Sequence record: OL960581
DNA length: 64,000 nucleotides
Direction: 5' to 3' (one strand)
Source: Escherichia phage vB_EcoM_SA20RB
Positions 46,945 to 49,201 of the stretch are shown here, in pieces. The notes below the pieces were generated by a model. That model was given only the letters and a program-made list of their open reading frames with translations. It had not been told where the DNA came from and ran no database searches. Both the position numbers and the translations under genes were made by a program. Position 1 is the stretch's first letter. The number at the start of each line of letters is the position of its first letter.

Positions 46945-47853
46945 TTAAAGGTCATTCAAAAGGTCATCCAGGTCCGTGTCATCAGCACTAGATGAACTGC
47001 CAGAGCTTGAGCTCATAAAATCATCTTCAGTTTTTGTTTTGAAGTCATCAACATTAAATGCATCCAAATCATCAGCAACTTTATCAGCTTTCTTAGCGGC
47101 AGTCGCTGCGGCACCACCCATAGCAGCAGTTCCCATAACTTGACTGAACTTAGTGCTCAGTTCTTCAAACGATTTGAATTTATCTTTAGAAGTCATTTCA
47201 GAAAGGTCAACCATTTGTTCGAACAGTTCTTTCTGGAAAGATTCATCATCAATGTTTGGAATCGCAGATTGATTCAGGAATTTAGATTCGTCGTAGTTAC
47301 TAAAACCAGAAACTTGTTTAACTTTCAGTACAAAGTTAGCACCTTCCCACGGACAAGTTACATCAACCGGAGTTTCACCCATTTCAACATCAACTGCAAT
47401 CATTGCATTGATTTTATCCCAGATTTTCTTACCGAAACGGTATTTAAATACTTTACCTTCATTTTCTGGAGCAGCTGGGTCTTTTACAACAAGAATGTTA
47501 GCCCAGTAAGAAGTTTTACGTTTAACAAGACCGTACTCTTTATTGTCAGTGTTATACAAATCATTTTTACTGATGTACTGACATACTGGACAAGAATCGT
47601 AATCACCGTAGGTAGATGAGCATGTTTCGATATACCATTTACCATTTTTCTTGAAACCGTGATTTACAAGAAGTGCAAATGGTGCTTGTTCATCATTTTT
47701 AGACGGAAGAAAACGAATTACTGCTTGACCGTTACCCGCATTATCGAGTTTCAGTTTCCACTCGCCTTTATCTTCAGAAGAAAAACCACCTTTATTTCCA
47801 GCCAGTTTAGCCATTTGTGCAGCGAGTTCAGCAGTAGATTTACGTTTAAACAT
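46945..47853 (-). CDS. 32: Single-stranded DNA-binding protein gp32
   Basis: 302-aa ORF; zinc site H..C...C..C and acidic C-terminal tail. Confidence 0.95.
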
Positions 47854-47920
47854 TTTTATTTCCTTTTTAATTTAATTTAATTTAATTAACAGTTGGTGCT
47901 ATGACACTTTACCTCATAGC
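47854..47920 (-). promoter_or_regulatory. Gene 32 autoregulatory translational operator (pseudoknot plus UUAAA-repeat leader)
   Basis: Minus strand reads GCUAUGAGGUAAAGUGUCAUAGCACCAACUGUUAAUUAAAUUAAAUUAAAUUAAAAAGGAAAUAAAA then AUG. Confidence 0.7.
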
Positions 47921-48546
47921 TGGCATAATTCGCAATACTCTGGGTCTTCGAGAGGTATCCAACCTGAGTTGAAATACTTTACCATCGATTTAGCAGTTGT
48001 ATCAGTTATATTTATATTACCTTTAACTCTTCGCCATCCAGGAGTTTTACCGTACAGATTAGAGGATAATAATAACACATAATTCTCGTAAGCAATATGA
48101 GATAATTTCCAAGACTCTATATTAGCTCGTGATGTTTTCCAAGGTCTAAAATCGTCACGGTTCATATAATTAGCCAATCTCATATGCTCTCTAACTTCCG
48201 GGTCTTTGGCTGGATGAGTTTCACCACTCACACCAAATCCACCACCAGCATATACCAGATTAAAATAGTCTGGATTATCTCTGGCATTTACTTCAAGTTG
48301 GTATTTTCGTTCTGCTTCAATAACATCCAAGTCATCATCAATTTGAATTATTTTAACGCTCGGTTTTTGAAGCATTAGCGCATTCAAAAATCTTTTTTGT
48401 TTACATGAGCTCCAGTATTCCTTTCCGGAAGAGTCATATATTATTCCGTTCTCAAATGAGCAATTTAATTTACTACCGATATAGTAGTATGGCGGAGTCT
48501 TATTTTTGACACGGTCTTCAAATGTAAACCAATATACTATATTCAT
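47914..48546 (-). CDS. GIY-YIG homing endonuclease (seg-like, T4 segG position)
   Basis: 210-aa ORF with N-terminal GIY-YIG-like motif (IVYWF...PYYYIGSK); sits between 32 and 59. Confidence 0.7.
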   Translation of the reverse strand: MNIVYWFTFEDRVKNKTPPYYYIGSKLNCSFENGIIYDSSGKEYWSSCKQKRFLNALMLQKPSVKIIQIDDDLDVIEAERKYQLEVNARDNPDYFNLVYAGGGFGVSGETHPAKDPEVREHMRLANYMNRDDFRPWKTSRANIESWKLSHIAYENYVLLLSSNLYGKTPGWRRVKGNINITDTTAKSMVKYFNSGWIPLEDPEYCELCQL

Positions 48547-48547
48547 A

Positions 48548-49201
48548 TTAATACTTGCAAGATTTCACAGTTTCAATGAAAACACTTTTGGCTTTCTGTG
48601 AATCAATATTTAAAATTTTTCTATAAGCTTTTAACTTTATAGAATAATTATTCCAGACTAAATTATCAGTCTGTTCATCATGTTTATCGATTATATTTAA
48701 AAACGAATCAAGCAAGATAAACGTCTCAAACGAAATTATATTCGATTGAAGTAGTTTAAAAATATAACTTGATTGAACTTTTGGATTATATTCAAAAATT
48801 TCTTTAAAAGCAGAAACTTCAACTTTTTTACTAAAATAATAAATGTTGCGAATATCTTCTTCAAACTTAAATTTAATTTGCTTTAAGCGTCCGATATATT
48901 CACGATAAAACACAAGTGCATCAGCGTCAGAGATGTCACCAATCCAAGCATCTTGGTTAGCAACAAGATTGCTTATAAAGATTAAAGCAAGTTCCTTTAA
49001 TTTATATTTTTCTGATAACTTCTGGAAAAAATACTTATCCCTTCGCTTTTGATAAGCGGCATCAGACACCCGCATGCACCAATTATACTTAATTACATCA
49101 TACTTTCCATTCATATGTTGTTTTATCATTAAGTATAATTTATAAACTGATTTACCATCAATGTATCTTTCACCACCAGCAGGCATGCGGAGTTTAATCA
49201 T
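48548..49201 (-). CDS. 59: Helicase loader gp59
   Basis: 217-aa ORF. Confidence 0.92.
   Translation of the reverse strand: MIKLRMPAGGERYIDGKSVYKLYLMIKQHMNGKYDVIKYNWCMRVSDAAYQKRRDKYFFQKLSEKYKLKELALIFISNLVANQDAWIGDISDADALVFYREYIGRLKQIKFKFEEDIRNIYYFSKKVEVSAFKEIFEYNPKVQSSYIFKLLQSNIISFETFILLDSFLNIIDKHDEQTDNLVWNNYSIKLKAYRKILNIDSQKAKSVFIETVKSCKY

Follow-up and report, generated by a model that had tools for sequence, protein, structure and literature searches.

The window, i.e. the whole stretch of 64,000 nucleotides analysed from Escherichia phage vB_EcoM_SA20RB (sequence record OL960581), belongs to a T4-type phage (Tequatrovirus), its best match among deposited genomes being approximately 95–97% identical over 20 kb. 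The region considered here lies on the minus strand, between gene 59 (48548–49201) and gene 32 (46945–47853), which encodes the 302-residue gp32 (Pfam gp32, E = 4.8e-66) and is the homing target of SegG in phages that lack segG, T2 among them (PMC2988022). Between the two is segG (47914–48546), formerly known as ORF 32.1; its 210-residue product is a homing endonuclease of the GIY-YIG family, encoded by a free-standing gene. Genes 33, dsbA and rnh are found further upstream of the gene 59 region on the same strand, and gene 34 in the downstream region on the plus strand. At the junction between 59 and segG (48544–48550, minus strand), the TAA stop codon of gene 59 is followed by a single base and then by the ATG of segG. 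Inspection of the sequence revealed no evident Shine-Dalgarno for segG at this junction which, together with the spacing of the two codons, suggests that translation of segG may be coupled to that of gene 59.

This ORF had been described in the sequence-only reading as a Seg-like GIY-YIG homing endonuclease gene. The alignment to T4 (NP_049855) makes this more specific: it is segG itself, with 633 of 633 nucleotides and 210 of 210 amino acids identical, an ATG start codon, a TGA stop codon (47916–47914) and the motif PPYYYIGSK at residues 18–26. It also matches PHROG 7504, “homing endonuclease”, with E = 1.3e-133. The T4 gene is annotated “SegG homing endonuclease; GIY-YIG family” and NP_049855 “site-specific DNA endonuclease; GIY-YIG family”, and T4 SegG was reportedly characterized as a GIY-YIG homing endonuclease by Liu, Belle, Shub, Belfort and Edgell in 2003 (J Mol Biol 334:13). 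The target of the T4 protein is listed as gene 32 and its mobility as “Yes” (table in PMC2988022; activity also in PMC2330249), and by its identity with this protein of published activity the SegG of the window would be an active homing endonuclease.

Within the sequence of SegG, the YIG motif corresponds to YIGS (residues 22–25) and the GIY motif takes the form IVY (residues 3–5). The N-terminal 100 or so residues have the alpha/beta catalytic fold of GIY-YIG enzymes, the catalytic domain covering approximately residues 1–100 and a helical DNA-binding domain approximately residues 112–210. Sequence profiles did not recover the GIY-YIG domain. SegG had no hit to any family in Pfam at E ≤ 1, and hence no GIY-YIG match, nor in NCBIfam at E ≤ 10, and precomputed Pfam domains are absent from all 29 SegG homologues. 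I-TevI was not recovered in sequence and profile searches of the PDB with SegG, a comparison of SegG with the I-TevI N-terminus by hhalign aligned only YIGS with YVGS (probability 0.2%), and Foldseek returned E = 1.3. I-TevI is also absent from the window according to tblastn. These profile misses do not exclude GIY-YIG membership, as the SegG family, which is small (29 clusters), has diverged beyond their reach. When 26 SegG family members were aligned, R12, P19, Y22, I23, G24, S25, K26, C29, Y44, S47, E79, N96 and A100 did not vary, and at least 90% of the sequences have Y5. There are two candidates for the catalytic arginine: R52, located at the start of helix 1 and present in 20 of the 26 sequences, and the invariant R12, whose position between the GIY and YIG motifs is unusual. 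Putative equivalence to Y6, Y17, R27, E75 and N90 of I-TevI was assigned from the order and spacing of the residues, not from a residue-level structural alignment. SegG differs from I-TevI (td intron) in being free-standing, in its longer GIY-to-YIG spacing and in a beta-hairpin insertion after YIGS, as well as in its published cleavage site, which is hundreds of base pairs away from the insertion site.

The 3′ end of segG runs into the leader of gene 32. In mRNA sense, this leader includes GAAUUA, UGCC, a single A, GCUAUGA, GGUA, AAGUG, UCAUAGC and ACC, in this order, and forms the H-type pseudoknot of the gene 32 mRNA, which is the nucleation site for gp32 (47898–47925, minus strand; placed from sequence, covariation and literature). 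Stem 1 pairs UGCC (47925–47922) with GGUA (47913–47910), and stem 2 pairs GCUAUGA (47920–47914) with UCAUAGC (47904–47898). Read by codon, the same RNA consists of GAA and UUA, then UGC, CAG and CUA, then the stop UGA, after which it continues as GGUAAAGUGUCAUAGCACC. The 5′ half of the pseudoknot (47925–47914) is made up of the last three codons of segG and its stop: C208, Q209 and L210 provide the 5′ side of stem 1 and begin the 5′ arm of the second stem, which the UGA (47916–47914) completes with its three bases. The location of the stop codon inside the pseudoknot stem, as had been read from the sequence, is therefore correct. Of the extent given with it, 47898–47920, the 47898 end holds, while the pseudoknot actually starts at 47925, so that it shares 12 nt with segG and not 7. 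The overlap itself has already been stated for T4 by Borjac-Natour et al. 2004 (PMC535899).

The T4 pseudoknot is found at −67 (PMC3014915; PMC535899), whereas that of the window begins at −72 because the leader is 5 nt longer. The remainder of the operator is an A/U-rich unstructured tract (47854–47897, minus strand; from alignments and the description in PMC535899) which carries UUAAA repeats and the Shine-Dalgarno AAGGAAA, and which exceeds that of T4 by one 5-nt repeat and that of T2 by two. The number of UUAAA repeats (47866–47888 in the window) increases from T2 to T4, to the window and to HY03, independently of segG. Binding of gp32 and autogenous translational repression at the operator are established for T4 and RB69 (PMC535899; PMC3014915), and by analogy with these two phages repression may be presumed for the combination of operator and gene 32 allele in the window. 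The gene 32 operators of T2, T4 and RB69 all resemble that of the window, with an H-type pseudoknot in which one A links the two stems, and downstream of it an A/U-rich tract leading to the ribosome-binding site. For T2, 2TPK is the NMR structure of the pseudoknot. The pseudoknot nevertheless exists as two alleles, T4-type, to which the window belongs (UGCC/GGUA, a stem 1 of 4 bp and the loop AAGUG), and T2-type (UGACC/GGUCA, a stem 1 of 5 bp and a longer loop).

Pairing was evaluated in an alignment of eight distinct T4-like leaders (the one representing the window and T4, that of T2, and those of six diverged IMG/VR loci). All 11 pairs are standard pairs in all 8 leaders (88 of 88 cells), and 6 of the 11 have changes on both sides. 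None of 500 shuffles attained the observed score, and slid registers dropped to 21–51% paired. Considering the full pairing, the compensatory changes and the outcome of both controls, the predicted pairing exceeds what would arise by chance. An Rfam scan of positions 47700–48700 gave no gene 32 operator family and only chance-level microRNA and snoRNA matches. Minimum free energy folding of the leader, a method which cannot represent a pseudoknot, recovered stem 2, but did not stand out from shuffles (z of −0.16) and was given no weight as evidence. Stimulation of −1 frameshifting by the pseudoknot was ruled out, as the sequence 5′ of it contains no slippery heptamer. On the plus strand, a sigma-70-like match is found over the pseudoknot DNA (47901–47929; ATGACA and CATAAT separated by 17 nt, with an upstream TG, 10/12), directed toward segG antisense. 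This isolated match to the consensus comes from a sigma-70 promoter scan whose total was at chance level (6 sites, 4.0 ± 2.1 expected).

The coding sequence of segG also contains signals for the expression of gene 32. T4 middle and late promoters were sought with dedicated motif searches, and the promoter and RNase E positions given for the window are motif matches mapped from the T4 literature. For gene 32, the T4 late-promoter box TATAAATA was located at 48009–48016 and a middle-promoter-like site (MotA box GCTT, N15, TATTAT) at 48069–48093, both within segG on the minus strand, and a site at the latter position is annotated “T4 middle promoter” in phage ASO78A. According to Edgell, Gibb & Belfort 2010 (PMC2988022), the middle and late promoters of gene 32 are situated within segG, which favours its retention, and segG is carried on polycistronic messages with upstream genes. 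In T4, RNase E cleaves every gene 32 mRNA species at −71, a position immediately preceding the pseudoknot (PMC3014915). The putative corresponding processing site in the window is an AAUUA motif from the motif scan (47926–47930, minus strand, approximately −76), which lies in codons E206–L207 of segG. In T2, the 99-nt spacer between 59 and 32 holds a MotA-box/−10 pair and a late TATAAATA box.

Across approximately 500 T-even phage records, segG was found in 140–141 and was missing from about 356–360 related ones, in which genes 59 and 32 are separated by a short T2-like spacer (99 nt in T2). The comparison of this interval across T-even genomes had been proposed in the sequence-only reading, and it yields a gene that is sporadically present among close relatives at a fixed intergenic site. 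Most copies are very close to that of the window: 118 of 141 have at least 99% nucleotide identity, and when this collection was searched with the protein, 124 of approximately 140 Tequatrovirus copies proved at least 99% identical to the window SegG. Within the sensitivity of megablast, no partial copy of segG was found among the 141 carriers. In 15 sequenced examples, the T4-type pseudoknot allele occurs with segG (10/10) and the T2-type allele without it (5/5). The linkage was tested with two chimeric queries against the whole phage collection, giving approximately 496 full-length matches. The 3′ end of segG was joined to a T2-type loop in 0 of 140 full-length matches, and the T2 spacer to a T4-type loop in 0 of 356, which makes the linkage of the T4-type allele with segG perfect (140/140 carriers and 0/356 non-carriers). 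The lack of chimeras in both sets means that the heterology linked to segG begins at the stop of gene 59 and reaches into the loop of the pseudoknot (approximately 47905–48547), and it is broken only by a 13-nt island, CCAGCUAUGAGGU. These boundaries refine the idea of a “chimera” put forward by Borjac-Natour et al. (PMC535899).

Three of the segG copies are broken. That of L005 (1318–1948) contains a frameshift and encodes 64 aa, that of AugustSocin (L091, 345–977) encodes 27 aa when read from its usual start codon, and that of a51 (L093, 343–977) encodes 178 aa. Despite their broken ORFs, in all three the cassette is undiminished in length and the pseudoknot is of the T4 type. A different kind of copy is found in OL964745.1 (“Escherichia phage T4”, 159752 bp), where a segG-like gene at 137448–138068 has 71% protein identity and is annotated as two endonuclease CDS; this points to an unusual variant or to a problem with the assembly.

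More distant members of the SegG family occupy the same slot between 59 and 32 in the Dhakavirus phages PSD2002 and Bp7 (58% identity) and in the Gaprivervirus phages RZ (35%) and VR7, where the gene is named “32.1”. In our extracted loci these genes are located at 1301–1936 in PSD2002 (L086), 1301–1939 in RZ (L087) and 1301–1849 in VR7 (L088), the last being a truncated copy. In both genera there is a 4-nt overlap between the stop of gene 59 and the start of the gene, and the stop codon is outside any pseudoknot. Unlike segG, the PSD2002 gene ends 27 nt before the pseudoknot of its phage is reached, and no recognisable pseudoknot was found in the 49-nt spacer of RZ. As both lack the pseudoknot overlap, it is specific to the T4-type cassette.

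While the coding DNA and protein of segG, its 59–32 position, the pseudoknot overlap (PMC535899), the embedded promoters and the RNase E site are the same in the window as in T4, its surroundings differ by the additional UUAAA repeat, by a gene 59 stop which is TAA and not TGA, and by a T2-like gene 32 (302 aa). The nucleotide alignment of this gene 32 allele shows 17 differences from T2 and 43 from T4; its likeness to T2 begins at nt 52, and the stop codon of gene 59 also follows T2. The window phage is a recombinant, in which a T4-identical segG adjoins a T2-like gene 32. Since segG is located between a T2-like gene 32 and a T2-like gene 59 stop, the crossovers hug the cassette (47802–47905 and 48547–48550).

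Variation in gene 32 was also followed at a short motif, which is CCCACGG in T2, CCCATGG in T4, ASO78A and G8, and CCTACGG in the window, Lv5cm, ph0021 and PsgM02F. In a sample which is small, selected by similarity and not independent, all seven phages with an intact segG differ from the CCCACGG of T2, and all four genomes with CCCACGG are without a working segG. The CCTACGG variant results in a Tyr (TAC) at codon 82 of gp32 (47608–47610), equivalent to His81 of T4 (CAT in T4, CAC in T2), at a position adjoining the zinc-binding cysteines. The Tyr allele is also present in Lv5cm, ph0021, PsgM02F, AugustSocin, a51, SP21535 and L006; two of the phages carrying it have no segG. Assuming a distance of 332 bp to the SegG cut, as reportedly given by Liu et al. 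in 2003, the motif would lie near the expected cut. The departure of the intact-segG phages from CCCACGG could then be a sign of target protection, although this is only a hint.

We consider, with a probability of roughly 85%, that the ORF is segG, a free-standing homing endonuclease gene whose cassette homes into gene 32 and supplies gene 32 signals. In a mixed infection, SegG would cleave the gene 32 of a segG-less relative, which is published for T4 and would be inherited here through sequence identity. Double-strand-break repair from the segG-bearing genome would then convert the gene 32 region of the recipient, and the 59–32 cassette would often be co-copied during this repair, substituting for the T2-type spacer of approximately 60 nt and the 5′ segment of the pseudoknot. 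Because it replaces that spacer, the cassette must supply the middle promoter, the late promoter and the RNase E site of gene 32, along with its own stem 1 and loop. The segG frame continues into the pseudoknot RNA and ends at a UGA which belongs to stem 2. Imprecise deletion of segG DNA would hardly be possible without harm to the expression of gene 32, which is essential, so that segG would be lost only by exact T2-type replacement or would decay by point mutation at constant length. Selection against imprecise deletion had been put forward from the sequence; it agrees with the published argument on embedded promoters (PMC2988022), with the count of 0 partial copies in 141 carriers and with the three decayed copies of full length. 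This support is indirect, however, and the all-or-none presence of segG could also reflect a recent spread, considering that 118 of the 141 copies are at least 99% identical. A retention effect of the embedded signals is plausible, and fits both the all-or-none distribution and the length-preserving decay.

The overlap raises the question, already put in the sequence-only reading, of whether segG and gene 32 are coupled in their regulation, either by gp32 at the pseudoknot hindering the ribosomes that complete segG, with less SegG made under gp32 excess, or by ribosomes terminating at the UGA melting the pseudoknot and transiently easing gp32 autorepression. The geometry permits such a coupling, as segG contributes its final 12 nt to the pseudoknot as the 5′ half; a terminating ribosome would need to unfold both stems, and the polycistronic messages carrying segG and upstream genes (PMC2988022) would offer an RNA on which this could take place. 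Control of segG by gp32 is nonetheless unlikely, because gp32 spreads 3′ from the pseudoknot to the gene 32 ribosome-binding site, away from the segG start located approximately 630 nt upstream (PMC535899), because the RNase E cut at −71 in all gene 32 mRNA species parts segG from the operator (PMC3014915), and because the promoters within segG yield gene 32 mRNAs without the segG start. Moreover, the stop codon of the slot's homologue with 58% identity comes 27 nt ahead of the pseudoknot, indicating that the overlap is not conserved in the family, and a slippery heptamer before the pseudoknot is absent. As for the second form of coupling, most gene 32 mRNA would either start inside segG or be cut by RNase E 5′ of the pseudoknot, so that ribosomes terminating on segG would disturb the operator only on a minority of unprocessed polycistronic transcripts, where melting is possible and probably minor. 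Taken as a whole, the coupling appears improbable to us.

The overlap could also be an accident without selective meaning, the inserted frame having simply run to the first in-frame stop, a UGA already present in the pseudoknot of the recipient. The GCUAUGA arm is indeed identical in T2, HY03 and other segG-less phages, the related endonuclease genes in the same slot have no such overlap, and this is what the chimera proposal of Borjac-Natour et al. (PMC535899) amounts to. On the other hand, the sequences 5′ and 3′ of the 13-nt shared island differ between carriers and non-carriers in perfect linkage with segG, which implies that the cassette brings its own compensated stem 1 (UGCC/GGUA as opposed to UGACC/GGUCA) and does not merely read into that of its host, and the embedded promoters provide an independent reason for retention. 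We regard pure accident as rather unlikely; it largely coincides with the homing-cassette explanation, and differs from it only in denying the retention effect. A further possibility, that segG no longer works and persists solely because it bears the gene 32 promoters and pseudoknot, would be in line with the absence of a Pfam GIY-YIG match and with the decayed copies of L005, AugustSocin and a51. Against it stand an ORF that is intact and identical to a T4 protein of demonstrated activity, the at least 99% protein identity of 124 of the approximately 140 Tequatrovirus copies, and the conservation of the fold and of the Tyr, Glu and Asn residues, and we consider it highly improbable.

The homing cassette has known parallels in segA, segE, mobB and mobC, which like segG contain embedded promoters of downstream genes that disfavour their deletion (PMC2988022). 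Unlike these, segG additionally has 12 nt of coding sequence in common with a structured regulatory RNA. The gene itself, its homing, the embedded promoters, the RNase E processing and the pseudoknot overlap are all known from the T4 literature of 2003–2010. To these, the present analysis adds descriptive elements: the linkage between pseudoknot allele and segG, the count of 0 partial deletions in 141 carriers, the decay by point mutation only, the recombinant with a T2-like gene 32, and the diverged relatives without overlap. From the presence of the T4-type loop in 140/140 carriers and 0/356 non-carriers, it may tentatively be proposed that the mobile cassette carries its own compensated pseudoknot variant, so that homing would rewrite the autoregulatory RNA of the recipient, and in addition that carriers may protect gene 32 by either of two independent motif changes near the expected cut; we hold this combined proposal to be possible, with the odds against it. 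The population-level facts could seed a small comparative study, while opening no new question. The locus is a good teaching example of how a selfish gene can become intertwined with the sequences that control an essential one.
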